Below, one piece after another: positions 1 to 23,332 of a stretch of 27,847 nucleotides of DNA. A model generated the notes under the pieces. The model worked only from the letters and a program-made list of their open reading frames with translations. It did no database searches and had not been told where the DNA came from. Position numbers and translations under genes: made by a program. Source of the DNA: Psammoneis japonica (Eukaryota). The stretch is taken from NCBI GenBank assembly GCA_008632985.1, contig QPGO01000175.1, forward strand, positions 124,001 through 151,847, in the 5' to 3' direction. Every line of letters begins with the position of its first letter. Position 1 is the stretch's first letter.

Positions 1-774
1 GTGCAAGAGGCATTGAGAACACAGCTTTGTGGAGAAAACTGCACTCCGTTTCACCGCATTGGGAGCGGTTTGTTGCAGCCGAGAGACCGGCAGAGAATGA
101 AAAAACGAAATCTGTTTTGCCGCTGCCTCACTGTGGCCCACACCAACACTGACCACAGCAGACCCACATTCCCCAGTGCCCACAAAGGGCAGCAGGGACA
201 ATTTGAACACTGTCGGACATTGTCAGAAAGACAATGGGGTGCTTGTGGACCGCCGGCATGCACGGCGCACGTCAGTTGAACATGATTTTTAGAATCTCCA
301 AATCATGCTGCACTCTTCCATCTTCCATCACACTTGCAACTTGTGCCACCAGCGCATTCACTGCAGCACCGCCAGATGTGCAGGATGCTTGACAGGCCTG
401 CTCAATTCCATGGCTGTGTGCACATGGCAGAGTGGCGCCCCTTTTTGCGTCTTGCCCTGTGGACTTTGGCTCCAACAGCGGGAGCTTCTCAGACACATCA
501 CAGCTTTTTCTTTTACACAAGGGACAAGCAATGACAACAGGGATGGAAACTTGAATGGGAGCGGTGCCAGATCATCTTGATGAAGTCGAGTTTGCTGCGT
601 GCTTCTCTGACGGACAGCAAGCAAGCTCATTTGGAAAAGTTTCTGAAGTCTGCCAATCCAAAAACCGTGAAACAGGCAAGTGATCCACTTTTGGATGAGA
701 CATTGTTCCAGGCAGCCGATGATGACAACAAACAAGAAGCTCTGCCTGCAATTGTCAAAAAGAAACTCCAAACT

Positions 775-2275
775 TGTTTGTGAGATGGCAGAAAAAAAAA
801 CAGATGTTGTGTTCCCAGAAAGCTTGAGAGTGGTGTGGCGCCAACATGAGGCATGTCCATCAAGCAGAGGCATCACAGCGTTCCTCATTTGTCCCTTGTC
901 TGTTGCGTGACTTGTTTTTCTTTTGCCCTTGGGAAGGTTCTTGCAGCAATGAATGGCAAAGTTGAGCATTGTGTCTTTCTCCATGCTTCTGTTTGTGGTG
1001 GTCCGGACATCAAAGCCATGCTGGTTTTTGCTGAAGAACTTGGCGTTGGGGTTGGGATTTGCTGGGGTGAGGCCATCAAGACACATTTCATCAACAGCAG
1101 TCTCGTCTTCTGGAGCATTGGTGCGGTTGGAGTCATTGGTCTTCTTCTTGCATTTGGAGGCATGTGCAAGGAATGGCGGCATTGCACCTTCAATTTCTTG
1201 GCGTGGAATGGTGTTGATGCGTGTGGAGGCAGATGGTCACAAGGTGATGAGTGCACTCAACATCCATCCAGAGCAAGGTGGGAACAACAAACAAAGTGGC
1301 ACCCCTTTGCTTGCCATCTGCTCTGGAAGAGACACACACAGTGAGATGATGACTTGTTTTCCCGTCACCCTCAGGAGTCCTCTGAAAAATTTGCAGCTTC
1401 TTCATCACCTCCTTGAAGACCAGCACTTTCTTTTGGCATTTCATTGTGTCCGTTGCAACTTCATCCACATGTTGTGTTTTCAAAAAGCCCCAAGCCTCTC
1501 AACCAACATCAACTTCACCTGCAGCATGGAGATGCTTCACAAAAGACTGCCACTTTGCAAAGTGCGCATCATCCCGAACCTCTTTGATCCCCTGCTCAGT
1601 GCAAATTGGGTCCAAGCTTGAAGTTGAAGCCAGTTTTGCTGGCTTTGGGTGGTGTTGGAGCATGGAGCACACAAAATGATCAGACACAGATGGTTTTTCA
1701 TGCTCGTCAATGAACTCATCAGTCAAGTTGTTCACAATCTCAAGAGTGGTGTCCTTTGACACTGTGCACCCGCCCATCTGACCCAACCAGCAGCAAACTT
1801 CAACAATGTGCTGCTCTTTGTTGTCAGCAAGAAGAGCTGTGTTTCCCTTGTGCAAGACAGTGATTGCCTCCTTTGCCTTCTCATCTTTTGCTCCAAAATG
1901 CTTGCAAATGGCTTCTTTTGCTTTCTCCACTGAAGCATTTTCTTGACAAAGACAACAAAGTCCACTTTGTTCCCAGGCCCAATTCAGGGTGTTGCAAAGG
2001 GAGCTGCACTTGGGGTGGACATTCTGGCAGTGACAGCTTGAAGAAACTCCGTTGCCATTTGTGCAGAAGTCCACAAGAATGTGGACCTTCAAAGACTTGT
2101 CCTCACCTGAGCATTTCGTTCCCTTTGCTCTGCCTCTCACCTTGGCTTTTTCCAAAGGTTTGAAAACATGCACCGGTGAAGGGGCAGCGACACTGTCAAT
2201 GCACTGAGGATGAATGCACGTGGTGGAAAACATGGGTTGCCACTGCAAGATGAGTCCACTTTGTGTTGTGGGCAT
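775..2275 (-). mobile_element. Degenerate pogo/Tc5-like (DDE_1, CENP-B-type) transposase relic with several frameshifts
   Basis: Pieces in order on the minus strand: HTH-like N-terminal part (EQHIVEVCCWLGQMGG...SSLDPICTEQ..VRDDAHFAK); first-Asp motif read as H-N-M-(2-nt insertion)-D-E at 1460-1476 (family pattern YNxDE); HLTVCVSSRADG; PPFLAH; TTNRSMEKDTMLNFAIH; second-Asp motif PLLDGHAS (~845-870); FFLPSH (~780-800). The third catalytic Asp and the TIRs were not recognised. Confidence 0.75.
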
Positions 2276-2552
2276 TTTAAAAATTTCTGTTGAGCTGATT
2301 GTTTCACGCAGATCATCATAAAATTCAAACCTCATGTAAAATCGCTGCTGGGATGTGCATCGACAATGACAGAAAAAACAGTGCAACAATGCATTGTGCA
2401 CATGCTGCACATGCGCTCTTGTCATGCAGGCACTTGCAAATCAAATGGCGCATCAACAGCTCAACAGTGTGGACAACAGGTTCGGAACCAGAGTGCCATG
2501 GTTGACAAGTCAGGATGACGGTTTTTGCAATTTTTTTTCGAGAAGTTGAGTG

Positions 2553-2573
2553 GATGAGAGATGAGAGATGAGA
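2553..2573 (+). repeat. Short tandem repeat (GATGAGA)x3
   Basis: gatgaga gatgaga gatgaga read directly; a reverse-complement match tctctcatc lies at about 2591-2599. Confidence 0.7.
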
Positions 2574-5500
2574 CTGCAGGGAAAGATTTTTCTCTCATCT
2601 GGAACTTGACAGGAAGCAGAGTTGATCAAACAAACCAAAGGAAGCAAAGATGGAATGGTCAAGAGCATCAAATGAGTTGTTGGGTTCTGCAATGAAGTTG
2701 TGCCCATTGAGACAGTCTTTGTTGAGAGTTGTTGTTGTCTCAAAGGCTGTGAGAAAAAAAAATGACTGCAGCTGCACTGTGCTCCTCCATTTTTGACAGA
2801 TGCACGTGATGTTTTGTGTTTCACCCAACAGGTCATCTGAGGTCAACATGCGTGCATTGCAGACACACACACTGCAGGACAGTTGACACTGGTTTGATTT
2901 GAGGGATTTGACTGTGGCTCTTCTTTGCAAAGGGAAGCACCCCAATGCTCCCACAATTGTTTGGTGGCAGCACCAGAAAGAGGGGACAATGAGGGAGCAA
3001 TCTTGGACAAGAACATTGAATCTGCTCAGTTGTCTGTGAGGCAGAGAATTGCGTGAAGACCAGATTGTGGCACTGTGCACAGCTGCAAGCACGCATGTTG
3101 ACAGTGTGTTGCAACTCTGCTGTGTTTCAATGACATTGTGGAGGAGCATGCCACTGATGGCACACCCGCTGTGGTTTTTAGATGTGATCATCTTTGGAGT
3201 GGGTGCCCCAAAGGGGGCCCTGCACCACTCCAAAGCTTGCTTGGCACATGACATCCAAAGTGTTTGTTTTGGGTGCAGTGCAGAATGCAGCTCCCTGTTT
3301 GTGACAATGATGACAGCCGCAAGTTGAAAACAAAAGCATGAGCTGCAGCACAACAAAAACCTTGAGTCTGACTTGTTCATGGCAGGGGGTGTGCTGACTT
3401 TTTGTCTTTTCTGGGCTGCAGCTCAGCATCACTCTCTCAAAATGTTCAGCAACACTGGGATTTTCTGGCACCCAATTTGGACCTGTGGGGTGTTGGCTTG
3501 GCTTTTTTGAACAACAATCTGAGACAAGTGAGGTGGCCTGGTGTGATGAAGTGTCGCCAGCCAATCGCGAGTTGTGCAGATTGCCAGTTCTGTTGTTGAA
3601 GTCAAGAGCTGGTGCAGGTCACCTTTTTTTGTTGGTCTTGTTTTTGTCACAGACATCTCTTGCTTTTGGACCCATTGGAGGTGGGCTTTTTCATGATGTT
3701 GATCAGGCACATTTGCAATTGTTGCAGCCTTCCTTGTTTGAGGGCCACTGTGCTTGTCAACCCAGCACACATCATTTTGACATGTCTGGGAATCAACTTT
3801 CCTTGTTTGCCAATCCTTGTCAAAGCAGCTGTGACAATGAGCCCCGTTTCAACAAGCCTTTTTTTTTTGACCAATGACCATCACTGTGAATGGCTCAATG
3901 TGCAGTGTTTTTGTGAAGTGTGCCTCAGTGCAAGGACAGAAGGCTTCAGTGCAGATGTCTTCTCTGCTGCCAAAGGATTGAAAGGGGACAAGCTCAGAGA
4001 CTTTTTCACCCAGAAGTTGATGAAGAGGCAGAGTGGCAGCAAATGCTGTGTGTTGTTGTTTGGCCCTGTTGGCTTTTCAGGAAAGCAGTTGGCAGGTGGT
4101 GTTGCTGTTGCAGCAGGCACATCTTTGCATTGCATGGTTTTGCTCCACCCAGCATTTTCAACTGTCATTTGTTTTTTTTCAGGTCAACATTGTTTGTTGC
4201 AGGAGAATGACAGAACTTGTTTTTTGCTTTTGGTTTGGTGCAGTCATCTCTCTTTGTTGTCCAAGGAGAGAAGCAACAAGGAGAAACAAAATTGGGAAGA
4301 AGCGACAGGAGCAGTGCACCAAAATGGCATCTTCATTTTCAGCTGGGGATGTTGGTCAATGCAAAATGTCAGAAGTCAGCACTCACTGCTTCTTGTGACT
4401 GCCTGCTCCTTTTTGCAGATTTGGCTGATCCAGGGCTCACTTCCAAAACACAGCAATGCAGTCCAAAACAGAGAGCCATGGACTCATGTCATTGATTTGT
4501 GGCATCAGAGTTGGGCCCATGTTTTTGACCTCCAGGGCTGCCAAATGCAGACCAAGAACCCAAAGATGGGAGCACATTGATGCTGGAGCCAACCACAATT
4601 TGACAGCAGCAAAAATTGGATTTTAGTTCAAGACATTGAGCTTTGCCTCCACTCCCATGATTTCATGAAGACTGCTTCTTTGATGAAGTCTTTTTGCATG
4701 CATGACAAAACCATCAGCACGGGCAGGTGCAGAAAAGGTTTGTTGTGCTGGTTTGGTCTGCAACAGGTCCAAAGTTGGAAGCAAGGCTGAAAGCTTCAGA
4801 AGTGAGCACCAAATGAAGACTTGTTTCACCTGTGTTCAAAGCTTTGCCATGGAGCTGAGTGATGCTCCCAAATGTCTTTGCAAGGGGGGTTCAAATTTGG
4901 GCATCAAGGGTGTTTTGCTTTGGGAAAGAAAACAACTCAGCCAACCAGCTTTGATGCCTGTGCTTTGGGACATTTCACAATTGACGTGCAATGTTGACTT
5001 CAGCAAAAACCATGACAAGTGACAACAACCCATTCTGCCACTTTCCAAAGGAGCTGCAATGCACACAAGCCATGCTTTGCAAGTGCCACATGGGGGCTTC
5101 ACAAGCCAAGAACACTTTGCAATCCAATCAGATGGACAACAAACAACCAAACTTTGGCTGCATTGGAGCTGCTTTCAAAGTTCAGTGCAGCAAAATGTCT
5201 TTGACTGAGCAAAGATTGGAAAAGCTTGGTGAGAGGAGTGGGAAAAGGCAAGGCCAACAGAAGGAAGGGTTGGGCAGAACAAAAAGGAAAGATGGTGCAG
5301 CTGCGCAAGAGAAAGATGTGATGGATGTGACGTTGTTGGTCATGTTTCATTGCTTTGGCAGTGTTTCTCCAAGAAAGATGCAAACTGGCCGTGTTGTTGG
5401 GATGGAAGATGTTGAAGTGGTGATGAACTGAACTTGGGCAAATCAAACAAAGCCTCAACTGTGAACCTGTCTGTTGTCTCCCAGCATTGAAAAATGCGTT

Positions 5501-6266
5501 GCACAAACAACAAGTGATGGGCTGGGTTGAACAGCTGTGAAATGAGAGTCAGTGGGGGGAGTGCAGTGGGGTGGTGATCAGAATTTCACATTTCCGCTGA
5601 ATGCACTGGGGCTGCTTTGCTGCATGTTGATTGGCCAGAAGATGCAATGATTTGTCCACGTGGCAGAATTTCCCATTTCCAAACACCAGATTGGCTGCAC
5701 ATTGTCGCTGCTGTCCGGGTCAATCGATGCAAGATGCAATGGCTTGATTTTGAATTTTGGGCATGTGCCCGGTCATGCAGGTGGCAACAAGTTTGTGAAA
5801 AAAAGAAGAGGAAAAGGAGGAGAAGGGAGAGGAGAGATGACATTCTCCGTGGTGCTTGCAATGCATTTGGCGTGCACGATGCCCAGACGATTGGCGCTTC
5901 CAATGCAGCCAGTGCAGCCCCAGCTCTCCACTCTGCTCTCTGGCAAACACTGGAACAGCAACATGCCATGATCTGTCCAAACACATTGTCTCTGCTGCTT
6001 CGCTGCTCACGGAAAATTTACACACCCACTGCTGACACTGCCATTGAGATGCAGCCACATGATCAGCCAAAACTCCATCACTTTTGACAGCCGGCTCCAC
6101 CTCATTTCATCCATTTCCTCTCTGGACCCAACTGGATGTGGAAAGTTCCAGAAACAGATTTCCCCAAAACAACAAATGGTGTCAAAAGACTTGTGTCATG
6201 TGGGGCCTGGAACATTGCACTGGCCCAGAAAGCCATTGTGAGCTTGGCCCTTCAACCACCGGACTT

Positions 6267-6296
6267 GAGCAAATCTCCACCTGTGGAGATTTGCTT
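6267..6296. repeat. Palindrome copy 1 GAGCAAATCTC-cacctgtg-GAGATTTGCTT
   Basis: Inverted arms read directly from the sequence. Confidence 0.9.
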
Positions 6297-6552
6297 CGTT
6301 GCATCACAAATGTGGCAAATGAAGCAATTTCAGATGTGGACAACATTTCATTCATGCGATTTTGTTTTGGAATGCGCATGGGCCGAAAATCTGGGGGAAC
6401 CCTTTTTGCAATCTAGAAAGTTCAAAGTCGACTTTTGACGCCGGTTTTTTTGCAAGCTCCATCTGTGAACAGAGAGGAGCTGAGTCTCAACCTGCAACAA
6501 TGCAGGTTGTCATGAATTGCCATCACAAATGGAGCAACAATGCCACTGCCTT

Positions 6553-6584
6553 GGAGCAAATCTCCACCGGCAGAGATTTGCTCC
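6553..6584. repeat. Palindrome copy 2 GGAGCAAATCTC-caccggca-GAGATTTGCTCC
   Basis: Perfect 12-bp inverted arms. Confidence 0.9.
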
Positions 6585-6700
6585 CAATGAGTGAATGCAT
6601 GTGGTGTGCTTCATGCGTGGATTCTGCACGATGCGACATTTTCATGCCATGTGCATTGCATCATTGTAAAAGTCCATGACACGCCCCAAATCCTCAAGCA

Positions 6701-6730
6701 GAGCAAATCTCCACCAGCAGAGATTTGCTC
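6701..6730. repeat. Palindrome copy 3 GAGCAAATCTC-caccagca-GAGATTTGCTC
   Basis: Perfect 11-bp inverted arms. Confidence 0.9.
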
Positions 6731-8804
6731 CCCTGGTGGTTGAAGGGTTGAGCACAGTCAAAGATGTTCACACTGGAAAATGACAGGCAAAATGAAAATG
6801 TGAGTGGAACAATGCACACAACGACAATCCATTGGGGGATCACATGTCACAGCACACTCACTGGGGCATCTTCAAGAGGGAGAGCTGGGTCGCCTTCCCA
6901 ATTTTTATGCTCCCAAGTGCCGCCAGTGGTTCGTGGCATCCTTGCATCCAAGAGGAGGCGATGAGCCTGCCAACACAAGCCTCAACCTCCCCATTTTGCC
7001 CATTGCTGCAAAGCCCAGACCAGTCGGCACACTGCCAAGATCTCCCCACATAACATGGACAATGTTGTGTCTTAGATGATGAAGAGAGTCAATTGCAGAA
7101 TGGGAAAAAAGGCTCATCATAGACCAGACACCTGCACACATGAACAAGACGCACAAAAAAAGGCTCGTGAGGCATGCAAGATTCGTCAAAACGAGTCCAA
7201 CACTCAAACAATTAGAGCACACTCCTGGGATTGCCTTTTTTGGACTGTGACAAGACTGTCTGACAATTGCCAACATCGCAAGTGTCCTCCAGGCTCCATC
7301 GCGTCATTTTGTTCCAATGGCGCGCACTTTCCAAAAATTGTGATGGCCGAAACACGACATGCCGTGATGATGTGCCGACCAAGCCCCCAAGAAGGATGTC
7401 AAGCAGCATGTCACAAATCCACACCAACATGCACAATGGGTGCACAAAAGGATGCAGAGTGGGGCAAAGCACAATGATTCCAAATGGGTGCACTTTGGCA
7501 GCACCAATGACTTGAAAAACATGCCAACATCACAGATGTCACAATCGACCACATGAGACAATCAATCGACCTTGCAAGACGCGTTCCAGCCCCAGGTGGG
7601 ACTCCGTGTGAGACATTGGGCCCGCGGAGTTCTGCGTGCGAGCTCCGCAGTGCAAGAACTTAATTGATGGACATGTTTGTCTTCAACATCAAACAAACGG
7701 CCCCAAGTTTGTGGTGCAATCATGCCCCTTGCCACTCAACGTTTTTGCAAATTTGCCTGCCCTGTGCGATTCTCAAGACATTGTAGAATCGCGCTGCAAC
7801 AAAAAATGTCAAAAGTTGTTGGACGGATCACTCAACAAGTGCACCATAAAATGACACAAAATGTTGAAAAAATCACGTAGAAATCCACGTGCACAACATG
7901 CGACGAGATTCAAAAAACTGTCGATGTCACAGCTCAGCAGTGCGAGGTCCCACCTGGACCTGGAGCGCGTCACAAGCTGTGACAAAATTCAACAACAATC
8001 TTTGGCAAGCATTCAAACGGCGTAAAATGAGAAAACACAAAAAGAGCTTGCCTTGGCAGCACTGTCAACCAGTCAGATGTTGCCCGCACCATGCCGCATT
8101 TGAGCTGCGAGTCGAGGCACGCAACCGTTTGCAGCATGTGCAGCAACCAAAGCACCCCAGGAGACCAAACCAACAATGCGTCAAAACCTCTTTGTGACAA
8201 CTGCAGAAAGAGATCACCCACAAAAAATGCGTCCACCCCACGATGCATGCCATGGCGAGATGCATCAAAGTGCAATGTGCATGGCCGTTTCTTGCGGTGC
8301 GGCATGCCAAATCGGGAGCATTTGAGTGGAATGAAGGAAATGAAGAGGATTCCTCCTCAGGCGTCCTTGTCAAACATGTGCCAAAGTGGACCGTGCATTT
8401 CCACTTGTCTTTGTCAAAATGGAATTGCGTCCTTATCAAATTCTACACAAGTTCCAGTGTAAATCCTACAAGAGCCACCCAGGTACAGCAGCTGGACGAT
8501 TGCCGAATTTTGGTTTTTGTGGATTTGCGTTGCCGCCTGCGCGTTCAAATCGTGCGAGCTCCAAAAAAATAGGAGTGAAATGGAGTGTGAAATAGCTATC
8601 GAAAAGACTACTTTTTTGTGTCGTTATCAATCTTCGCTTGTAATTTGAATCATCCGGTTTGCCTCGGATATGCTTAAAGATGCCGACATGTGATGGAGAA
8701 GCCTTCATTAGTAATCCTTGTCCCACATTCTTGTGAGCCACGTTTCCTTCTACTTCGAATGTCGTCTCATCGACTCTCGCCCACGATCCGCCCTCTTCGC
8801 CTGG

Positions 8805-10450
8805 TTAAACTAACTTTCTGCTTTTCTCCAGCTCATCAAGGACGTCTTCGCTTCCAGCCTCTGTTTTTAAGTAGCCGCGACTTTCCAAATACCAGACAGT
8901 TGTTTCATCGGAATGAGAATCCATATTCCTTATGTCAACAGATCCGTCGTGTTGTGAATCACCACGAATATCCCACAGATCACCAGTATCATCTTCTTTA
9001 TGTCCTCCTCTTCTGTCAGATTCCTCCCAGTCCGAGTCGCCGCTACCTTTCAGCATCATAAACTGCAAGATCGAAATCTTCGAGTGTCACCAGACAATTC
9101 AAAATAGACGATGGGTCGTCTTCATCTCTACTCCCGGAATGACAAGAAAAGTCACGTACAGCTCGCTCCAGCGCATGACTCGCAGCTGCCCTAGCGACTC
9201 CGGCCATCACCGCTCCCGACATGCCTTTACATTGCGCTGCAAGCAAACGAAGAAGTTGTTCATACGAGAAGGTAGCGCCTGTACCATTTCTCAGTGTTAC
9301 AACGTTGGTGAGATATGCGACCATTGCTCTAGACAACAGTGGTATCTATAAATGATAGCCACAGCTTACCTCTATGTACCTCGACGCTGCGGTGTTCTCG
9401 GGTGGATTTGACACTACAAGCCTCCCTGCGCGACACCTGCTCTTGGTATGAACCAGAAGAATACTCATTCGCTGTGCTACAGTCATCGGTGGTGAAACCT
9501 GAATTCATACCTCAAAGCGACAGGGTCGTAAGGGTGCTGGTCGACATTTACATTTAAGAATAAAACGGTCGGATACAAGTGAAAAATCTAATCAACACGA
9601 GTCCAAGGCACCGTGACTCTTACCGGGCTCAGTGGGGCTTCGTTTGTTCGTAAGTCCGATAACTTATGACGGAACTTCAAGGGGATCAACACCGCCCATC
9701 TTTGTAAGAATTGATTCACAACTGAATCTCGCGCTACACCCGTGTCAACTTGATCGCCCTTGCCTTCACGACCACTGCTTGTCCGTGCCATCGCGTAGAA
9801 TTCATCCATGACAATCACGTCAAGGGCTGTGCATGGGAGAGGGACGCACCGCCATCAGGCGTACCGATGCGATAAGAATAATCGTAAATTGGAGGAGGAT
9901 TATCGAACACCTCACGCAAAATCTTTAGAGGAAGATGAAGGGAATAGAATATAAGGGAGAGAATAAGGTTTCGGGAGACCAATTCAACAAATGATCCTTC
10001 ATAGCGACACACGCACCTTCTCGCTCGACAAAACAAATTTATCCATGAGCTCGGGATCCGACATCACCGTAACTGGACGGGCCGGGCACAAAATTTTGCC
10101 AATGGTTCGAGCCACTAATAATGTCTTTCCACAGCTAGCGCGGTCTCCCCATAGAGAAGCAATCCTCGACCGTTAATTCCCAACTGCTAAAAAAGCTCCG
10201 GTGGAAGCTCCAGAGCTAGCAACAAGAGCCGAAGCCTCGATTGTAGCTGCCCGTTCCAGCGCATCATCAACATGCGCTTTGCTCTTCGGTTTGATCTCTG
10301 AGAAAAGGAGTCTGGATCTAAGTTCCACGACATCAGCAGCAGATGATGTTGAAGCGATTCAGCACTCGTTTTTTCGTGTGAGGCACACGGCACCCATCAA
10401 AACGGAAGCACTGCATGCAAGCAACATGGAAAACAACGAGCATCTTCTCT
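8805..10450 (-). pseudogene. NSF/Sec18-like AAA+ ATPase pseudogene with introns
   Basis: GLLLYGETASCGK (degenerate Walker A, followed by a frameshift, ~10125-10170); PELMDKFV; IVMDEF (Walker B); DTGVARDSVVNQ; PLRPCRFEV* (SRH/arginine finger with in-frame TGA at 9505-9507); lid helix LAAQCKGMSGAVMAGVARAAASHALERA. Putative introns ~9923-10016 (GTGCGT..AG) and 9537-9623 (GTAAGA..CAG). The 5' end is approximate. Confidence 0.85.
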
Positions 10451-10689
10451 AGTGACTCAATCAGACAATCTACCGGTATTCCATGATGGCAGTGGCGACG
10501 ACGCAGGTTCCATCATGGTCGGAAATACTCGGAACAATGCCGCGCGCAGGCAGAGCATCTATTATTTTTTGCATGTCAAAAGCTCGAATATTTTGCGGTG
10601 TGACGTCTTTTTTACGTCTTGCACGCCAAAAATTTTAAACCTGATAAAATCGAGCTCGCACAGCGGTTGTCTCGTAGATGGGCGTCACC

Positions 10690-11082
10690 TCACAACATCA
10701 AATAAATACCGGTACACCGGTACGTAACCGGTAACATGACTCTATCATAAGGTACGGCTGACATCCAACATGGGAGGTCTACTTTGTAAGTGGCTAGTGC
10801 GTCACTGAACACGTTGGCTTCTTTGTAGGTTACTTGGAAAAAGAACATGGTCCCTATTTTGAGCCACCGTGTAGAAGGCGAAGCGAAGAAATTGCCCGGC
10901 AACCTTTTACCGACAATTGTAGTGTCTTCTGGCTTTAGACGTGGGCAGCAAACATTGAATAAACTTTTTAATACATTTTCGCTGGTTGTTTCTAAACGGT
11001 TCATGATCGGGAGCTTGTGCGCGACATCATCTTTCGCAGGTTTCGGCAGCTCTTGAGAAGCAAACACACTAGACACGAACAA
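10690..11082 (-). CDS. Possible hypothetical protein or gene fragment (130 aa)
   Basis: Open frame with protein-like composition; no recognised domain; the true start is unclear. Confidence 0.25.
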   Translation of the reverse strand: MFVSSVFASQELPKPAKDDVAHKLPIMNRLETTSENVLKSLFNVCCPRLKPEDTTIVGKRLPGNFFASPSTRWLKIGTMFFFQVTYKEANVFSDALATYKVDLPCWMSAVPYDRVMLPVTYRCTGIYLML

Positions 11083-12119
11083 AGAGATAACTCAAGTGCT
11101 GATCGATACGAACATGTTCATAAGTGGCAGCATGATCATGCCCTTTGTTGATGCAATTGACGACTGACGACGAAACCACCCTCGTTGCTTGACGTCTTGA
11201 CTCGAGTCGACTCCGTTTGTTCTCGTGGTGGCTGTGGTATCCTTTGGCCGAAAAAAAAGACTACGACAAAGCTTCTACTTGCTGCGGTACTACCCCAGTC
11301 AAACTCCGAATTTATAGGCTACATACCGATGCTTGTGACGAATTGGAGGACATGGCAATCGAAATGGGCTTGAACGAAATACTGTCGTTCCAAACTTAAA
11401 TGAGTGGCAAGTTGGTGGCATCCAACGAACAAAACCAAAGAACTGAGCACTTCAACGCGTGGTCTCCAACCTCCAACACACTTTGTACTGTGTGCACAAT
11501 AACACTGCATCCGGCACCGGCACTTTGACCATGACTGAGGCGAGTGCTTGTGCGCCTCGACGGATACGGTCCCTTACAGTCGGTTCTGTATCCCTTGATA
11601 GTAGAACAAGATGATTTTTTCTCGTTGGAATCAACTGACACGCTTCAGGAGCGCTCATTTGATGGAGTAGCCCTGTACTGCAGCTGTAAATGACGGTTTT
11701 CAACGGATGGGTGGTGTCAAGCTCACGTCCAGAGCCTCTAGCGGACGCCTAGTTTGATCCATATCACTTCCTGCCAATCTGAGTTCAATCATAACAAAAC
11801 AGTATCATGCCGTCCACAACCAGATTTCTCTGACGAGAATTACGCGGCAAACGCCTAGAAAAGGAATGTTGGGTCCCTATCTGGGCGTCACCGAGATGGC
11901 GAACACTGTACAGGAACGGACAGCTCTGCCAATTCATTCCTACCTAACATGAGCACAACAAGCAGCACGCAAATCTCACACTGGACACAAAAGAATGGTT
12001 TGTCGTATAACTGTTATGGCTTTTCTGTGGCATTTGATCCATTTTAAAAGCAAAGCTTCTCTCGATTCTGAGCTCGCTCGAGAGCCATTTTTATTCGCTG
12101 TAGATCTGACTGACTTTCA

Positions 12120-13942
12120 ATGTCATTAAAGGATCTCCACCATGGTTCACCTACAAGTAATTCTGGAGGATGCAACTGCTACGAAACTGAAATATCTTTT
12201 GTGGTGGCACGAGAACTCATGCTTCGCACCGTTGCCATGGTTTTCTTTTTCTCCTTTTATGGGCCGTATAAACAAAACTCTGGAATTATGGGAGCTTATG
12301 GGCTTGTCCCAGCTCATTCATATATGAACGTTTTGCAAAACGCGTCGCCTTCCAAGTGGAACGGCTTCTTGAACCATCCGACTCTGTTTTGGTGGATTGC
12401 TCCCTCAGATCGAAATCAAAAGGCAGTAGCAATTGCTGGTATTGTGCTTTCGATTATGGGGAAAATCGTTGGGGATTACGGATGGTTCACTTTGGCTTCC
12501 TACCGATTTCGATGGGCAATATATTTCTCCATGTGGCTGCTACATTTTTCAATTGTGACCATAGCCGGTGGTACTAGCTTGTATTCTTACGGATGGAAAT
12601 CACAGCTTCTGGAAACTGGAATCTTGTGTATTTTTCTATGTCGATTACCATGGATTGATGATTGTCCTCGGTCCTCGAGAATCCTCAAGTGCCAATACAG
12701 TGCAAACGCTTCCCATTCTGTGGTTGTTTCGATGGTTGAGCTTCCAGATTTTGATTGGAGCTGGGCTCATCAAACTCCGCGGTTCGTCGTGCTGGATCAA
12801 GAAAACGTGTCTGTACTACCACTTTGAAACACAATCGTTACCTTCCCTGCTATGCTTTATATTCCACTTTTTACCCAAGAGTATCCTGTCGAGAGCGGTT
12901 GACTTGGATCTATTTGTGCAAGTCTACACAAGTTGGTTTGTCATGGTGCCGGATTTCAAGATTTTGCGGCATTGCGTTGGTCGTTCTGTACGCCGATTGG
13001 GAGGATTTATCCTAGCAGGCTTCATGGTCAACCTTATGTTGTCGGGGAATTTCAGTCTTCTTAATCATATCACTATTGTTCCTGCATTGGCTTGTCTGGA
13101 TGACGAATGCTTTGGAATCCTGTCGCGTTGGGTGGTACCGACAACACCCTTCGTCAGTGAAAAAGGCGAAACTCGTGGTTAGTTTCTCCGCGATACATTT
13201 TGAGCGTTTTCTTGATTGCCCTGATAGGCTACTTGTCAATTTCGACTGTATCGAACCTGTGGGGGAGCGACGGACGGCAAGTGATGAATGGAAGCTTTGA
13301 TTGATCTCGTTTGTTGAACACGTAAGGTGCCTTTGGTAGTGTTGGAGAGGCTCGATACGAACCGATTACTTCGGTGAGTACGGGCGATCGATCAGAACGG
13401 GTGGAACTAGAGTTCCCTTACAAACCAGGAAGTATCACTCGGAGACCGTGCTTTTGCGCTTTGTATCACCATCGGCTGGATTGGAACATATGGTATGTCA
13501 GTTTTCTAGTTGCCAGTCTTGTTGCCCGGCTCATACTCCAGTAAACTTTGAAATTGATATCGTGTCAAGCAGGTTTATTGGATTTAAGCCGCATCAAGCC
13601 TTCTTGCGTCAGCGTGAAGCATGGCTCTACCAACTACTTGAAAAGCTTCTGGACATACGTGAAAGCGAAAGGCCTTGGTCTTGCTCGACAAGACTTCTGC
13701 TGCGTACTTAGTGGACACATACAACCAAACCAATACACAGCAGCTACCGATAAGAGTTGCCAAGGTTGACATGTACCATTATCAAATGGCGAATTCACTT
13801 TGGAACATTGTCAATTACGAACAAGACAAACAGAGCCACGCAAGCCGTGTGGTGGAAAAGATCTTGGGAAGGTAGAATTGGGTTCAAAAACGAAACGAAT
13901 AGACTAAGATTATCATTGGCATCGTCACACGGAAGCAGCTAG
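12120..13942 (+). pseudogene. Lipase maturation factor (LMF1/LMF2 family) pseudogene
   Basis: Family motifs YGWKSQLLETG, FRWLSFQILIGAGLIKLRG, YYHFETQSLP, SGNFSLLNHITI, QVMNGSFD*SRLLNT*GAFGSV, ELEFPYKPG and YHHRLDWNIW. Frameshifts near 12650-12710, ~13180 and ~13680; in-frame stops TGA 13302-13304 and TAA 13323-13325; intron ~13493-13572 (GTATGT..CAG). Confidence 0.92.
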
Positions 13943-14149
13943 AGTAGGAATCTCGCTCACCGCGAGTGGCTTGGTAATTACAGTCCGCTGTACGGGTACT
14001 CTTTTCAACAATGACGACCACGCGACAGAACGTGACAACGTGCACTATACTACTTAAAAAGGCAAAAGCAGTGAAAAGATAGGTCCTACAAGCGCGTACG
14101 ACCGGATGTTGTGCACGACTCCTGCTGTTCTATACCGTGCCAATATCTA

Positions 14150-14690
14150 ATCATGGCATCTTGACGTCCATTTCATATGCGCGTCGATTCGTTTCGTCGG
14201 CTCGTTTTAACATCGCCTCAGCTAATCTTGAGCACGAGCTTCTTCCAGCACCCGCCTCGTTTCTGCTTGATTTTCAAGGTCCAGCTTGGCTTGCTCTTGC
14301 GCGTCTAGCACTTTATGTTCCAGTTCGTCCATACGCTCTTGTGTCCCACATGCACAGGTGTTTTTGTCAAAGTACTCTTATTCAACCTTCTCAAGGCTTT
14401 CCATTTCGTCAACGATACGATGCTTGCGGCGAGCTCGATTCACCAATGAAATCGAATCAATAGTGTTGAGTTGTTTACGACGCAAGTACTCTTTTTGTGT
14501 CCTGTTTAGTTATTTGGAGCTCTATGCCCTGGTGTTTCGAGACATTGGCTGACATGAGCCGCAAGCCCCATCGCTCCAGGTCACGTGCTGGTTTTGGATC
14601 ATCTTGTCGATCACGATTAAGCAATGACGGATTGGATTGTCGGGAGGTAATGGGGTAGAAGAGCCCTGGTGGCATGTAGAGACGCCACAT
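14150..14690 (-). pseudogene. Disrupted coiled-coil coding relic
   Basis: The minus strand reads RIVDEMESLEKVE*EYFDK...ERMDELEHKVLDAQEQAKLDLENQAETRRVLEEARAQ and, after a shift, LAEAMLKRADETNRRAYEMDVK. E/K/Q/A-rich helical composition interrupted by stops; boundaries approximate. Confidence 0.4.
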
Positions 14691-14992
14691 TCATTATCTT
14701 GAGCGATGGCTTCGACCAAAGGTTGGATATGGATCAACCAACCCAGTGCATCCAACATCGTACGCAAGTACGCCGAACCCCCCACCCCGACACGTTAAAG
14801 TTCCACAGCAGTCGTGTTGTACTCGTGACGCAATGTTACGGTGAACAAAGCAAAAGCGCAGCGTTGAAGAGTACATATGTCAATAAGAAATACGATGCTA
14901 CTAGAGAATGTATTATCAGAACTAAAGCATGCTTGGAACAGCATGAGAGCCTTTCAGCAGGCCTAAACCCTCTCTCACTTGGCAGTATTTGC

Positions 14993-16057
14993 TTACAGCG
15001 CTTCCACCTTGGCCTTGAGGCGTTCAAACTCAAGTTGCTTTGACCGAAGCATGCTATGCGAAGGTTCCTCGAGTAACTTCTTGGCCTCATCCGCACCGAA
15101 GAGCTCCGATGCAACATCCAAAGTTTCCTCAAAGCCGAACGTCTCAAGAATGTCAGCGAGGGGGAATCGCAAGTACAGGGCAAATCGGACATTCCTTCCT
15201 CTGCTTTCACAAATGTTAAATGCATGGATGTCACCACAAACGTCGTGGTTGGCATCAACGCCCTTGTTCCTGAGTTCGTGCACCCAACCGAGGACATCTA
15301 CAGGACTCATGCCTTTGACCTCGGCAGGACTGGAGACTCCGACAACGGCCCGGATTTCCTCCTTTGACATGTCCGCGCACTCCTTCTCCTCGTCAGGCAA
15401 GGTTGCCATGGAAAGCAGCTCCTGCTTGTATTTCTGAGAATCAGAAATATTCTGAGTGGCGACAGTCACCGCCGCACGAGCTTTGACTTCGATTTCTTGC
15501 CAGTTGGATTGCTCCATCAGTGCTTCCGTGTGTTTCGTTTCGAACTCGATCCGCTTGGCTTCCACGCCTGCCTCCCATTCTTGCCACGCGGCGTAGATAC
15601 GCGACACATTCTGCTTGCATGCATTGTTGTAGCCGCGGGCCAACACTTCTGCCTTGCAACACGCGTCGTACCTCTCCGAATTCTTCTTCACGTTATCCTC
15701 GAGAGCCTCACGGTATCCATTCTTCTTGTTGTAGTTTTCCAAGGTGATCTTGCCTTTGCGATGGACACCGATAATGGGGCAAATGATATCACCCTTCGAC
15801 AACACGCTCAACGCTTTCTCGGATACACTGTCCAGATTGTAGATGTCTGGACGGGGTCCTAGAGCTACTGTTCCAGTCACGGGGGTGAGACGAACAGCTT
15901 GGGCTGATGCATTCAAACGACGACGTTTGGTCCCACTCTGACCACGATTGGGCGTACGGAACTCCCTGGTAGTACGCAAGGCATCCGGAGTAAACAAGGT
16001 GTCCGCACTGTTGCTGTAAGAAATAGCTTCTGCCACCGCACTGGTAGAAAACTTCAT
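14993..16057 (-). CDS. Hypothetical protein, 354 aa, with coiled-coil segments and a basic NLS-like motif (TKRRRL)
   Basis: Uninterrupted ORF from ATG 16057 (ACCATG context) to TAA; natural composition; no recognised domain. Confidence 0.7.
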   Translation of the reverse strand: MKFSTSAVAEAISYSNSADTLFTPDALRTTREFRTPNRGQSGTKRRRLNASAQAVRLTPVTGTVALGPRPDIYNLDSVSEKALSVLSKGDIICPIIGVHRKGKITLENYNKKNGYREALEDNVKKNSERYDACCKAEVLARGYNNACKQNVSRIYAAWQEWEAGVEAKRIEFETKHTEALMEQSNWQEIEVKARAAVTVATQNISDSQKYKQELLSMATLPDEEKECADMSKEEIRAVVGVSSPAEVKGMSPVDVLGWVHELRNKGVDANHDVCGDIHAFNICESRGRNVRFALYLRFPLADILETFGFEETLDVASELFGADEAKKLLEEPSHSMLRSKQLEFERLKAKVEAL

Positions 16058-16210
16058 GGTGATGGTTGCTGTAAGAACTTGGTTCGTGTCAAAGGCGAGA
16101 AATCGGTCAATTCTGGGAATTGTGAGCAATGAGACAGCTCGTTTCTTTGTGGAAATCGTTCGCTCAGCTCTCTTTTCCCCGTAGGTTTGATACCATATTC
16201 TACGACTTTT

Positions 16211-16475
16211 GATCGTAACGGAAATCTGCAACGGCGGCTCATATTGAAATGCCGTGGCTTCCACGCGAAGTGAAACGGCAGAAGGTCGATCATCGTGACG
16301 ACAATCTGCAACGACGGCTCATATTGAAATGGCGTGGCTCCCACGCGAAGTGAAACGGCAGATGTCGTAGCCTCCACGCAGACAGAACCGGCAAACGACA
16401 ATGCGTTTTCTTAGCGGCAACGGCAGGTCGTACTGAAATATCGTAGCTTTTACGCTGACAGAAACGGCAGAAGGC
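16211..16475. repeat. 80-bp tandem duplication plus diverged partial copies
   Basis: 16211-16290 and 16291-16370 align with an exact 80-bp period (AATCTGCAACGRCGGCTCATATTGAAATG..CCACGCGAAGTGAAACGGCAGA). Further partial copies at ~16364-16395 and ~16417-16475. Confidence 0.9.
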
Positions 16476-16719
16476 AATGAGACTGCTCAGCGGTGACTGC
16501 AGCCCGCGGTGAATCTCTGACGCTGCCTGCTCAAGCATCCGCGCAACAATGAACGGCAGGTGGCAGTAATGAGTACAATCAGAGGAAACGAAAGCTCATA
16601 GTCCATACGTGCAACTTCCATTTATCCCAGAAATGAAGCGACAAGACGCCATGGTGGTTCCGATAAGCATGTGTGCGCCTTCTCTAACTGGAATAAGAAA
16701 AAGAATGGATCGGAACGAA

Positions 16720-16890
16720 AGTTTCAAATTTGAAAAAAGCTCCATAGCAATAGATTATTCATGAAGGATAATCATTAATCTGTTATATCTATCTGGCTAC
16801 GAGGATATTGCATATTTATCAAAAACATAAATAACTGAATACTCTAAAAAATATAATCTCTACTAAAACATGTGTATCTCATTTTTCGAA
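16720..16890. other. AT-rich intergenic patch
   Basis: Visibly A/T-rich (e.g. aaaaacataaataactgaatactctaaaaaatataatctc) compared with the surrounding sequence. Confidence 0.6.
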
Positions 16891-18664
16891 ATCCCATTCG
16901 TGTTTATCGACAATCTTCACGATGGTTTGCCGGCCTAGTCTTTAGAGAAACGATGTGGCGGATCCGTGAACTAACATGCGCTCGAGAGTTGCTATTTGCA
17001 ACAGAATGTTGCCCATCACAAGACGCGTGGGCGAGCGGTCGAGGTCGAGGACAACTAACAAGTCCCTTTTCTGGTACAGTACTTCACTGAATGCCGTTTT
17101 CAACTAGATGAGAACTGGTGGCCCTCTATTTGCCATCGTCAAGTCGTTTATTGAAAATGGTGTAAAAACCCTTGCAGCTTGCAGTTCTAGCACTAGCTCA
17201 ACTGGTTTTGTCAAGGATGTTTTTGACTAAGCTTTTGTGATGGCGGGTAAAATTCTACCGTACACGGCACCGATAGCGGCGCAGAGCTGAGAGAGCGCTG
17301 CGAATCGATTGCAATGGTTGAGGAAACTTGACGATCGCTGGAAGAAGAGGACGAGAGGAACATGGAATTACTGGCATGGAAGGAGTCGAGTACGTGGAGT
17401 ATCCGACCAAAGAGAAGTGACATTAGAAGAGAAGTCAAGTGCGGCCATACTTGATTCGAATGAAGCCGATGAACAATGGAATTCTCTTCGGCATTCAGCG
17501 AGAAGCCGACAAAAGCACCTTGGCTGTCTCATGCCGAACTATCATCTGGACATTCCAATGAAGCTTCGCTGTTTCAACCAGCTAGGTAAGCCTTTTCTGC
17601 GTCCTGGTATTATTGTTGGATGGCGTGCTGATGCTCTGCGTTCTGAACCTCAATGAGAACAGAATCTCAGGTTTCCGCGCGTCTGTGATTTACGGGCAAA
17701 CAGTAAGCTGCTCCATTTTTACACCTGGAACAAAAAGAGAGGCTCTCCATGCGTGCTTGTGAACTAGAGGGACCGTTTCACAGCTTTCGTAGCTAGGAAA
17801 GCTTTGTATGTGTAGTTAAGAAGCAATTATCACGTCAACGATCTTCACTACTATAATAACCTCAAACTCCCCGCTTGACGTGTAAATAGCATCCTTGTAC
17901 CTAAGTCACAATACTTTCATTTCATGGACATCAACTCAATCGCATGGGAATCTCGACATTTTGGACGTTTCGTCCAATCTGCAAGGCAACGTGCTGACGC
18001 AGGCTTGTAAGTTCAAAGTACTCCGTGTAAGCACCATAATAAGTCGCTTCATGTCGTTTCTTGCTGGGGGGCGGGGGCATTCCAACTCAAATTTGGCAAA
18101 TGAAAAATCCAGGTATGATCATGAGCCGTCTTGCATGCAATGACTAGTAGCTTAATTTTTCGGGACCTCACCATTTTTATTTTTGTCAATAAACAGAATC
18201 GCTGATTCTCAATTTGGACTTGCAGCGGAGACCGAAGATAGAGGACCGCCCCGTTCTTACTAGTTCTTCTTTAACTTGGGGACGACTGCTCGAGCAGCTG
18301 AAGACGATCAGGAACAGGGCCACTTGCAGAATGAAAACAGTATCCAGCATCACACATGATCTCGTCGAATCTGATACGTCGTTGAAAACCAAAGCTAGGT
18401 CAGGCTTCAACGTCACGCCGTATCAATTGTTGCAATCCATTGGGTGTCGTCGACCAGAGCATACTTCCTAGAGAATATGGCGATATCGATGTATCAAAAA
18501 TGGAGCAATAGATATTATTCTGAATATAAAATGTAAATGCCTCGAATGAGCGGTCGTTCTCTCGGCCACTACTCCATCCCACTCCTCCACTCTAGCAGTA
18601 GCTAATAGAAAATATGACTGCATCACTGTGCGAAAAGGAAAAATACAATATCTTGATCATTCTT

Positions 18665-19114
18665 TCAAGTCTTTGTTGTCTGACAAAGGCATCTTAGAAA
18701 GAAGGGAGTCTTTTTCTTATTCTTGTCGGTATTTTCTGTAGCTTCCGGTCCTTCACAGTCCTTTATCTCCCGCGAGCGCATTCGTGACGTTTTGATTTGT
18801 TTTACTTCTTTTCGAGCTTCCACCATGCTCGATCGAGAGTGCTTTTTCTGTACTAGGGTATCGCGTCGTTGCTTGGTTAGCTTTTTAGCTGGTTGTGGTC
18901 CACCCTTCTTTTCTCGCACCTCTTCAAAGTCTTCCACCGAGAATGTTTCCGAACCAATTTTTCTTCCAATTGCCACAGGAAGACCATCTGTTACGGATGG
19001 GTTGTCACCCAATCGAATGCTGTGTTCGTGAATTCGGACCTTGCTGAAACTCACGCTGCTTTCCGGCGTGTCCGAAGTGAATTCTGCACTGGTATTGTTT
19101 GGAGAGCCTTCCAT
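18665..19114 (-). CDS. Small protein (149 aa) of the diatom-type VxF..V.I.E....LGDNPSV..G.P family
   Basis: Motif SVSFSKVRIHEHSIRLGDNPSVTDGLPVAIG followed by FSVEDFE and a basic C-terminus; ATG at 19114; intronless and intact. Confidence 0.8.
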   Translation of the reverse strand: MEGSPNNTSAEFTSDTPESSVSFSKVRIHEHSIRLGDNPSVTDGLPVAIGRKIGSETFSVEDFEEVREKKGGPQPAKKLTKQRRDTLVQKKHSRSSMVEARKEVKQIKTSRMRSREIKDCEGPEATENTDKNKKKTPFFLRCLCQTTKT

Positions 19115-19586
19115 CTTTATCCCGTCCAAGACGTTATTTTCAACTTTTGTCTGTCAATTTGAAAAGGTTGTTATTAGGTCTCCGGCAGCTTGGTGCATAT
19201 ACCGGTAAGTCAAAGCAACGCCGCAATAATGCCGACACCAACAAAAGAAGTTGAACTCCGATGCATGAGCTCGCTTGCGTCACCCAAATTCAGTCGTGGC
19301 AGTTGTCTTGAAAACGCCAACACTAATAAGATTCCACGTTTCAGGAAACCCGGAGTTTCTACGTCGACTTTTCGCGCCAAATCCGTCATAACCGTCAACG
19401 TCACCCACGTTGCAATGACCAGTACATTTTCTACACAGTTGTACGCGTCATGATCTCCCGCGCACCTCCCGCGGCATTGGTCGCACATCTATCATCAGTC
19501 TCAAGTCATCTCACACACAACACACAGCACACCTCAACCGCACACACTTGTTCTAAACTACTCTTCATCTCGTCGTGTGCTCCACC

Positions 19587-23278: not shown

Positions 23279-23332
23279 GGTCTCATGGTATGGTAGTGTC
23301 GCTCGAGTTGGTGAGCACGTGTACATAGAGTT

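Follow-up and report, generated by a model that had tools for sequence, protein, structure and literature searches.

A block of transposon relics nearly devoid of TpA and poor in CpG, probably mutated in place by two transition processes

What could remove nearly every TpA step from a stretch of DNA in which A and T account for 26.8% and 25.4% of the bases? This question is raised by positions 1 to 8433 of the window, i.e., of the whole stretch of 27,847 nucleotides analyzed here. Delimited by dinucleotide counts and assigned to neither strand, this block is open at the left end of the window and may extend beyond it. It contains 20 TA, whereas base composition predicts 574.3 (rho 0.03; TpA frequency 0.0024), while positions 8434 to 27847 contain 838 against 1361.9 (rho 0.62). 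The Poisson probability of 20 or fewer TA in the block is 2e-213 relative to the composition expectation, and 1e-122 if the flank's own rho of 0.62 is used. Conversely, CA and TG are both enriched about 1.75-fold (922, rho 1.77, and 923, rho 1.74, respectively). A prior sequence-only reading had described about 20 TA in 8.4 kb, eight of them in the first 6.4 kb, a gap reaching to 2277, and abundant CA and TG; the counts bear out each of these statements. The TA sites are 290, 514, 2278, 2319, 2337, 3179, 4624, 6019, 6414, 6667, 6906, 7051, 7073, 7120, 7213, 7661, 7784, 7847, 7878 and 8023, with none between 515 and 2277. Along the block, rho for TA is 0.00-0.04 over positions 1-6000, and then rises rightward to 0.06 and 0.12. 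The surviving TAs lie in T4A/TA4 tracts.

The block is also poor in CpG, a depletion absent from the earlier reading. There are 159 CpG, against 480.9 expected (rho 0.33, versus 1.01 outside), with values per kilobase of 0.06-0.44 over positions 1-7000 and 0.67 over 7001-8000; the CpG deficit and the TpG/CpA excess are confined to the block. Taken together, the pyrimidine-purine steps (TA, CG, CA and TG) make up 24.0% of all steps in the block and 24.2% of those outside it, which is what would be expected if transitions alone had occurred. In a simple model, 95% of the TA in the flank sequence was converted to CA/TG and 67% of the CG to TG/CA, and the resulting k-mers were compared with those of the block. 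The correlation with the block rose from 0.742 to 0.964 for 3-mers, and from 0.690 to 0.944 for 4-mers; conversion of TA or CG alone gave 0.86-0.88. Unless CG is converted as well, the k-mer spectrum of the block is not matched. About a third of the CA/TG excess comes from CpG loss, and so the excess does not derive from TA alone.

The main identifiable element in the block is a broken transposase gene with weak pogo/DDE_1 affinity, at 358..2440 on the minus strand. It consists of three colinear ORF pieces (1502-2440, 1193-1498 and 361-1236), with an in-frame stop at 1499-1501 and a change of frame in the 1193-1236 overlap. Twenty-eight remote homologues were found at E <= 1e-3, the best at 5.5e-11, and the pieces are colinear with two of these, P0144 and P0139, across NMDE- and LDGH-type acidic-residue motifs, which we take to be catalytic. 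None of the 125 ORFs of the block matched Pfam, and DDE_1 (PF03184) was matched weakly in 2 of 20 relic homologues, with scores of 22.1 and 19.7 bits (cut-off 22); the relic is colinear with these two. At best, the relic would therefore be a divergent, uncurated relative of the pogo/Tigger-type DDE_1 transposases. The amino acid composition of its three ORFs departs from that of the 28 homologues, with Tyr at 0.3% (versus 2.8%), Cys at 5.5% (2.2%), His at 5.8% (2.9%) and Arg at 4.0% (6.4%). Arg was lost, and Cys, His, Gln and Trp were gained; the missing Tyr and the wealth of Cys and His noted earlier in the translations are thus confirmed for the relic.

Other parts of the block differ widely in abundance. 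A 394-bp MITE-like element at 7578..7971 (strand unassigned) is bounded by 25-nt terminal inverted repeats, 88% complementary; the summed contig depth reaches 136,298 in the bin 7601-8000, and the genome appears to carry very many copies of the element. At 6248..6747, also unstranded, a palindromic unit of 29-48 nt occurs in three copies with a summed contig depth of 2900-4100, versus about 60-70 in the flank; these units are probably the ends of small nested elements. By contrast in depth, the segment 2578..5817 (no strand) is single-copy, being covered by one 3241-nt contig of run X1 (depth 66.9), which departs from the window by 2 letters and 1 gap. Its long ORFs, at 2595-3422 (minus) and 3600-4580 (plus), had no Pfam, PHROG or viral-contig match, and no viral match was found for the block. 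As the earlier reading proposed, the TA-poor domain does contain transposon relics, the transposase gene and the MITE among them.

The right edge of the block falls within 8424..8443 (unstranded), between the last TA-free run (8024-8433) and the first TA of the flank, at 8434. Further TAs follow at 8444, 8460, 8467 and 8484, i.e., five in the first 51 bases, and at 8433/8434 the block gives way sharply to the flank, within a few tens of bases. A unique-depth contig of run X1 begins at 8429, so that the edge matches a repeat/unique junction. Within about 200 bases lies a host gene with normal TA and CpG (8466..10522, minus strand). Contigs of run X2 skip stretches of 78-94 nt, whose plus-strand ends are CT..AC (twice) and CA..AC; read on the minus strand, these are GT..AG and GT..TG. 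The gene matched no Pfam family; a host ORF has its best relative at 61% identity.

We then compared the block with other copies of its repeats, taken as contigs of a public sequencing run; these differences are pairwise, and unpolarised without a full family consensus. Among 40 of the 687 rows of differences, spanning positions 43-1587 in a few contigs, the window has CA/TG where the other copy has CG in 16 cases and the reverse in 2, and CA/TG where the other copy has TA in 6 cases and the reverse in none, all unpolarised; one adjacent pair is CA versus TG. For the MITE, we aligned the consensus of 23 other contigs (agreement 0.93) by eye, offset by 2 bases; it carries TA at two places, at which the window reads CG and TG. 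At several sites other than TpA, the window departs from this consensus by T>C or A>G; the mutation spectrum may be wider than TpA, or the MITE of the window may come from a sub-family. Because the MITE and the 800-1600 repeat retain TA in their other copies, the loss appears to be specific to the copy, or the place, found in the window. Contigs derived from the reads of run X1 reproduce the TA-free sequence, with 2 differences over 3241 nt at a depth of about 60-70x. At a few CpG/TpG sites their letters are not those of the window, and run X1 is therefore not simply the same consensus as the window.

The sequence-only reading had named no system with such a signature. This does not hold, since the signature itself has already been reported in Bigelowiella natans, whose mutation-accumulation lines show it (Mettrop et al., bioRxiv 10.64898/2026.01.13.699255). 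According to the main text of this preprint, 230 of 231 mutations in two viral regions were A>G or T>C, the GC-biased ones all at TpA, and the mutation rate was ~6e-7 per site per generation, at TpA only. The mutations arise de novo in integrated viral DNA, resident in the chromosome, and were detected by Illumina sequencing in independent lines. The genome is described as containing 124 TpA-poor, CpA+TpG-rich clusters; low-TpA coding sequences are enriched in DDE endonuclease and RT domains, with a mean TpA frequency of 0.0018, compared with 0.0024 in the block. Were the window from B. natans, the block would probably be among these 124 clusters, tabulated in Table S10 of the preprint. With the cluster cut-offs given there (at most 0.43 for Rho_TpA, at least 1.52 for Rho_CpA+TpG), all eight full 1-kb windows of positions 1-8000 qualify, at 0.00-0.12 and 1.69-1.85, respectively, and the transposase relic and the MITE give the block a foreign or mobile origin as well. 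The B. natans clusters and the block thus share the loss of TpA and the gain of CpA+TpG on both strands, and both involve DDE-transposase-like and unannotated sequence. They differ in that the block is near saturation (rho 0.03, against 0.45 reported for the actively mutating NCLDV region of B. natans) and is transposon-derived, with no viral match. The block is also co-depleted in CpG, which goes unmentioned in the main text of the preprint, as do a sharp gene-side edge and an A/T-tract context of surviving TAs. New here are the CpG loss, the sharp edge beside a gene, the survival of TA in A/T tracts and the sparing of ApA.

We consider it likely that the block is silenced mobile DNA, comprising a dead transposase gene, MITEs and some unique sequence, which two transition processes, each with CA/TG as its product, have mutated in place and nearly to completion. 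The first would be an A:T-to-G:C hypermutation at TpA, restricted to the locus and acting on either strand (TA to TG or CA). The second would be the decay of CpG to TpG/CpA, most simply through deamination of 5-methylcytosine in methylated, silenced DNA. The agent of the first may be a DNA adenine deaminase of the ADAT2/TadA type. In the tRNA substrate of these enzymes, A34 is preceded by a conserved U33, and a requirement for a 5′ T would fit such an agent. The preprint likewise proposes an ADAT2-type adenine deaminase, as a candidate only, for B. natans (10.64898/2026.01.13.699255), and to judge by the signature the same process may have produced the block. The hypermutable regions of the preprint are reported to have no C>T excess (1/211), so the CpG loss would be a separate, slower process or older than the block. 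Cytosine methylation would mark the block, and targeting might be set by the sequence of the element or by a chromatin mark that ends at the neighboring gene. Of the earlier proposal, mutation of TpA on both strands to near saturation agrees with the near-equal CA and TG counts (922 versus 923), the TA carried by other copies and the loss of Tyr. Its description of the process as repeat-targeted is too narrow, in that ~3.2 kb (2578-5817) is single-copy.

It is possible, if rather unlikely, that one targeting system marks silenced mobile DNA and that deamination within the mark affects both the A of TpA and the C or 5mC of CpG. A dual-specificity ADAT2-like enzyme could act on TpA and CpG; such enzymes are cited, for amphioxus and Trypanosoma, in the preprint (10.64898/2026.01.13.699255). 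Under a single system, the sharp edges would make guidance by sequence or small RNA probable, rather than spreading chromatin, and TpA in T4A/TA4 tracts might be structurally protected.

Mutation in place by two processes has also to be weighed against the notion that the block or its elements were edited elsewhere and inserted already TA-free, either as an extrachromosomal, single-stranded or RNA intermediate or at another heterochromatic locus later duplicated here. The sharp edge, its coincidence with the start of unique-depth sequence and the lack of leakage into the flank (five TAs in the first 51 bases) are what such an insertion would leave. However, B. natans mutations occur in integrated DNA (10.64898/2026.01.13.699255), and parts of the block that differ greatly in abundance, including the single-copy 3.2 kb, are equally TA-free, whereas other copies of the MITE and the 800-1600 repeat retain TA. 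Moreover, TA density climbs gradually rightward, as expected of younger insertions into a block mutated in place, and the equality of CA and TG, with both strands affected, is not predicted by an RNA or single-strand intermediate. We therefore judge editing before arrival to be improbable.

An alternative to adenine deamination, raised in the earlier reading, is error-prone synthesis with a WA-to-WG spectrum like that of pol eta; occurring while the silenced block is repaired, it would yield A>G at an A preceded by T. The motif of pol eta, WA, comprises AA as well as TA, but the block shows no deficit of ApA or TpT (rho 1.26 and 1.36, versus 1.17 and 1.12 outside). The GC-biased mutations in the B. 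natans viral regions, moreover, were all at TpA (10.64898/2026.01.13.699255). Pol eta thus fits poorly, and we give it very little credence. Less probable still is an intrinsic or selected composition, in which the block never had TA or was purged of it by selection, for instance against the insertion of TA-targeting transposons or against cleavage by UA-cutting RNases. TA is indeed somewhat low across the whole window (rho 0.62), but the loss of ~97% is alike in broken genes, MITEs and non-coding DNA, the transposase homologues have normal Tyr, other repeat copies carry TA, and selection on the product of an inactivated gene is unlikely; these comparisons of sequence support a mutational rather than an intrinsic deficit. 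The faintest prospect is a sequencing, base-calling or polishing artefact, such as a modified base read as G or C: run X1 is possibly from the same material as the assembly, but its read-built contigs give the same TA-free sequence at about 60-70x while departing from the window at a few CpG/TpG sites and so not being one and the same polished consensus, the patterns in the protein and among paralogues are what fixed mutations leave, and the B. natans mutations were seen by Illumina in independent lines (10.64898/2026.01.13.699255).

Three better-known systems resemble the block in part. Fungal RIP likewise resembles a genome defence, being a transition hypermutation of mobile DNA that is locus-restricted and near-saturating and largely spares neighboring genes. 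RIP converts C to T mainly at CpA, raising TpA and lowering GC, and requires duplicated sequence; in the block, on the contrary, TpA is destroyed, A:T becomes G:C, and 3.2 kb is single-copy by contig depth. With rho of 0.03 for TpA and 1.77/1.74 for CpA/TpG, i.e., the reverse signature, RIP was rejected. The CpG decay of methylated transposons through 5mC resembles the block in its CpG depletion (rho 0.33) and the matching gain of TG/CA, in the amino acid shifts of the relic (Arg down; Cys, His, Gln and Trp up) and in the 16 rows against 2 where other copies have CG, and would explain only about a third of the CA/TG excess; our literature search turned up nothing pertinent on cytosine methylation in B. 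natans. Finally, ADAR-type A-to-G hyperediting affects retroelements, and APOBEC editing of LTR elements is reportedly found fixed in genomes (PMC4866542). In both, deamination serves innate defence and leaves mobile DNA with clusters of transitions, as may have happened in the block, and ADAR prefers U before the edited A, according to the Discussion of the B. natans preprint (10.64898/2026.01.13.699255). Yet APOBEC and ADAR act on RNA or reverse-transcription intermediates and mark one strand, whereas the block is affected equally on both; its main identifiable element is a DNA transposon rather than a retroelement, and the B. natans mutations occur in chromosomal DNA.

The erasure of TA has a practical consequence. 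It removes almost all TAA and TAG triplets, of which 28 remain on both strands of the block, and many long, overlapping open frames result (3.8 per kb of at least 100 aa, versus 2.2 outside). Gene models in TA-erased blocks therefore deserve distrust, since stop-poor sequence yields long open frames. As to the wider meaning, genome defence by A:T-to-G:C hypermutation of resident foreign DNA at TpA is a new addition to those reported from eukaryotes; our literature search returned one preprint alone on it (10.64898/2026.01.13.699255). The saturated block displays the end state of this process, and constrains the mechanism, in that both strands are affected to the same degree, ApA is not depleted, the block ends sharply near a host gene, CpG loss spans the same interval, and the few TAs left lie within A/T tracts. 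Transposon and single-copy DNA are affected too, and not viral inserts alone. If the source of the block is not B. natans, a possibility separate from that of a single targeting system, this defence would exist in more than one protist lineage.

From a base composition of 26.8% A and 25.4% T, 574 TA dinucleotides would be expected in the first 8433 nucleotides of the window, yet just 20 occur. The observed/expected ratio, rho, is thus 0.03, and CA (922) and TG (923) each occur about 1.75-fold above expectation. The remaining 19.4 kb, referred to here as the flank, carries several TAs per 100 bp, at a rho of 0.62. Tested against the flank's own TA level, the deficit of the block has a Poisson p of 1e-122 and hence did not arise by chance. 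The sequence-only reading had described this erasure, and its account is confirmed down to the positions: the first 6.4 kb carries 8 TAs, and the stretch from 515 to 2277 carries none. Because the sequence is TA-free already at base 1, the block may extend to the left past the start of the window.

A second depletion, unnoticed in that reading, occupies exactly the same interval. CpG rho is 0.33 in the block overall and 1.01 outside; per kilobase it ranges from 0.06 to 0.44 over 1–7000 (0.06 in 4001–5000) and is 0.67 over 7001–8000. The four pyrimidine-purine steps nevertheless sum to 24.0% inside the block and 24.2% outside, which is the pattern expected if transitions alone acted. In a forward simulation, 95% of TA in flank DNA was converted to CA/TG and 67% of CG to TG/CA. 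This raised the correlation with the block from 0.742 to 0.964 for 3-mers and from 0.690 to 0.944 for 4-mers, whereas a single conversion, of TA or CG only, reached a 3-mer correlation of just 0.86–0.88. The simulated contents of TA, CG, CA+TG and G+C match those of the block to a few tenths of a percent. The block thus resembles ordinary DNA of this genome that has undergone two kinds of transition, each ending in CA/TG.

The right edge of the block is sharp. No TA occurs from 8024 to 8433, and TAs then follow at 8434, 8444, 8460, 8467 and 8484, so that the edge at 8433/8434 is defined within about 50 bases. Unique-depth sequence begins at 8429, in register with this edge, and the nearest stretch covered by contigs of X2, one of two coded public sequencing runs compared with the window, is no more than about 190 bases away. 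Spreading chromatin would account for such an edge less well than a limit set by sequence or by a boundary element. DNA that was already mutated on arrival would fit the edge too. Mutation in place is favored, however, by the gradient of TA density along the block, where rho is 0.00–0.04 up to 6 kb and then 0.06 and 0.12, and by the TAs borne by other copies of a MITE-like element within the block. Two TA-poor patches are also found inside host genes, at 15001–15500 (7 TA) and 20001–20500 (9 TA), against about 29 expected in each. Both have normal CpG and, at the 1-kb scale, only mildly raised CA+TG; they lack the signature of the block and probably reflect coding composition.

The process appears to have been specific in its sequence context. 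ApA (rho 1.26) and TpT (rho 1.36) are not depleted in the block, which argues for a strict requirement for a 5′-T and against a pol-eta-type WA motif; the pol-eta-like WA>WG spectrum offered earlier as a candidate is therefore disfavored. The surviving TAs are not a random sample either. A 5′ TTT or a 3′ AAA flanks 11 of the 20 (at 290, 514, 2278, 2319, 2337, 3179, 4624, 6667, 6906, 7847 and 8023), compared with 38 of 837 flank TAs (4.5%; Fisher p ~1e-9) and 113 of 1843 CA/TG sites in the block (p ~7e-9). R-TA-Y, which accounts for 30% of TAs in the flank, is absent among the 20 survivors (p = 0.002). From the enrichment in tracts, TpA within T4A/TA4 seems to be refractory. Several surviving TAs also look like splice-site motifs (TTTTAG, GTAAAA), and for these either the tract or the motif may be the relevant context; that the tract TAs were kept for some function, or were regenerated at those sites, is less likely than that they resisted conversion.

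Part of the block derives, in all likelihood, from a transposase gene. When 1.84 billion representatives were scanned in full with HMMER, the minus-strand frame 1502–2440 matched, over its C-terminal half, 28 distant relatives (E ≤ 1e-3, best 5.5e-11, 33% identity); a word-indexed protein search with the same ORF gave 0 matches, and the relatives surfaced solely in the full scan. In 2 of the 20 relatives scanned, a weak DDE_1 (pogo-type) domain lies further downstream, at 22.1 and 19.7 bits for a cut-off of 22. The minus-strand frames 1193–1498 and 361–1236 are colinear with this downstream DDE_1 part, with aligned NMDE-type and LDGH-type motifs, which may be catalytic acidic motifs. The interval 358–2440 is thus annotated as a putative broken transposase gene on the minus strand, from a divergent family whose pogo/DDE_1 affinity is weak; it is interrupted by an in-frame stop at 1499–1501 and by a frame change within the 1193–1236 overlap. 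The pogo relic proposed earlier is accordingly plausible, given the colinear relatives and the weak DDE_1 domain, but its membership in DDE_1 is weakly supported. Other searches added little. Pfam gave no credible family for the ORFs of the block (22 of at least 100 aa, at E ≤ 1, and 103 of 45–99 aa, at E ≤ 0.01), with four sub-threshold, chance-level matches, all from the longer set. A PDB sequence search with P0144, a homologue colinear with the relic pieces, and an NCBIfam search with 5 proteins returned nothing relevant.

The residue content of the relic frames differs from that of the 28 homologues in Tyr (0.3% vs 2.8%), Cys (5.5% vs 2.2%), His (5.8% vs 2.9%) and Arg (4.0% vs 6.4%). Changes of the kind TAY>TGY/CAY and CGN>TGN/CAN would produce such a shift. 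Stop codons were affected too: on both strands of the block, 28 TAA and TAG triplets are left, against 399 TGA. Owing to this loss, the six frames of the block contain many long, overlapping open frames (at least 100 aa; 3.8 per kb, vs 2.2 outside), and gene models within TA-erased blocks are possibly spurious.

The remainder of the block contains parts that differ greatly in abundance. The MITE-like element, 394 bp long with 25-nt inverted ends, lies at 7578–7971. Contigs at least 85% alike sum there to a depth of 136,298, against about 60–70 in unique flank; although it does not give a copy number, this value indicates that the element is very abundant. A metagenome scan with its end motif gave 119 loci, all chance matches confined to the motif. 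Three palindromic repeat units are present at 6248–6747. By contrast, a lone 3241-nt contig of single-copy depth spans the segment 2578–5817, for which Pfam, PHROGs and viral contigs gave no relatives; the ORF 3600–4577 has none among viral contigs, and a PHROGs search with 20 ORFs gave one chance-level match and nothing else. Self-comparison of the window revealed no copy of any block sequence elsewhere in it, and Rfam and tRNA scans of the window gave 0 hits. Holding both an abundant MITE and a single-copy segment, the block is a composite, and all its parts are equally TA-stripped.

Comparison with other copies bears on the direction of change. In the consensus of 23 other MITE contigs (agreement 0.93; aligned by eye, with a 2-base offset matching a listed indel), TA stands at two places that are CG and TG in the window. 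Within 7582–7643, one TA is altered at both bases to CG in the window element, and a few differences in this stretch are T>C or A>G outside TpA, possibly reflecting a broader, weaker activity. We also compared the window with contigs of X1, the other coded run. Among the 40 differences listed of 687, all at 43–1587 and from a handful of contigs, the window has CA/TG where the other contig has CG in 16 and where it has TA in 6. The window has CG against CA/TG in 2 and TA against CA/TG in 0; an adjacent pair at one site, CA in the window and TG in the other contig, accounts for 2, and the rest are other transitions (4), transversions (9) and an ambiguous case (1). Over all places, transitions (497) outnumber transversions (175) and run about equally in both directions (window A/T at 239, G/C at 258). 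This copy thus appears more decayed than the others on both the TA and the CG axis, a polarity that only a full family consensus could formally prove. Taken together, the copy differences, the MITE consensus and the residue shift of the relic make it unlikely that the lack of TA is intrinsic composition.

That it is a sequencing artefact is very unlikely, since contigs built from X1 reads repeat the TA-free sequence over 826 nt (3 differences), 460 nt (1) and 3241 nt (2), although X1 possibly derives from material related to the window's and its platform is not on record. X1 is not merely the same polished consensus, because at 43, 565, 651 and 853, the differing sites listed, the window has TG/CA where near-identical X1 contigs of single-copy depth have CG and only the X1 letter is present; these differences are unpolarized. 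In such near-identical contigs, 6 differences fall in 4527 nt of the block and 0 in 3090 nt of the flank (one-sided Fisher p = 0.044); this hints, if weakly, that the block continues to change more rapidly than the DNA around it.

Outside the block, the genes of the window are of ordinary eukaryotic types (LMF1, a mitochondrial carrier, CCCH/CCHC zinc fingers). Within 8620–10522, X2 contigs omit stretches of 78–94 nt whose plus-strand ends are CT..AC (twice) and CA..AC, i.e., GT..AG (twice) and GT..TG on the minus strand. By these ends, X2, a run not recorded as RNA, looks like the spliced transcript of a multi-intron, minus-strand host gene ending beside the block. Its cover is little or none over 2801–5600, which is no evidence that the block is silent. 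A host ORF of 453 aa at 24865–26223, of CCR4/phosphodiesterase nuclease type, has 304 relatives (best 61% identity); its named matches are diatoms, at 33–38%. A 71-nt direct repeat occurs three times in 16212–16471 (100%, 92% and 65% identity; spacing 80 and 109). The copies occupy the 5′ end of a 441-aa minus-strand frame (14996–16318) with no Pfam family, and the sequence just past that end.

The sequence-only reading knew of no named system with such a signature, but a preprint now describes one (Mettrop et al., bioRxiv 10.64898/2026.01.13.699255, version dated April 2026). Of the 302 nuclear point mutations that it reports from mutation-accumulation lines of Bigelowiella natans, 231 fell in two integrated viral regions, at a rate there of ~6e-7 per site per generation; 230 of the 231 were A>G or T>C, and the GC-biased ones were all placed on TpA. 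Low-TpA coding sequences (n = 324; mean TpA frequency 0.0018) were enriched for DDE-endonuclease and reverse-transcriptase domains, and the authors propose an ADAT2-type adenine deaminase and a role in defence. By the definition given there, eight consecutive windows of our block classify as a cluster, so the earlier central inference of TpA-directed hypermutation was right. The TpA frequency of the block, 0.0024, compares with that mean of 0.0018. The block is saturated, however, with a rho of 0.03 as against 0.45 in the actively mutating NCLDV region of the preprint. TpA (4.3%) and CpA+TpG (14.3%) in the rest of the window are close to the coding-sequence means given there (4.1% and 13.7%), a resemblance that is not specific. 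Our literature search for this TpA signature elsewhere found no other report, only work on fungal RIP, APOBEC and ADAR.

The mutational reading of the block is thus supported, and as its mechanism we infer adenine deamination with methylation-linked targeting. CpG is never mentioned in the main text of the preprint, and our literature search found no relevant report of cytosine methylation in B. natans. The simplest reading of the CpG loss is that the block, once silenced, would have been cytosine-methylated and then deaminated; if so, targeting of the TpA process would be linked to a methylated compartment. The block is a further, extreme instance of the kind of system described in 2026 and not categorically new. 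To that system it adds saturation, the loss of CpG in the same interval, a sharp edge, the sparing of ApA, non-random surviving TAs and, possibly, a broader spectrum. If the window comes from B. natans, the block is probably among the 124 clusters that the preprint lists; if it does not, the process is present in a second organism.
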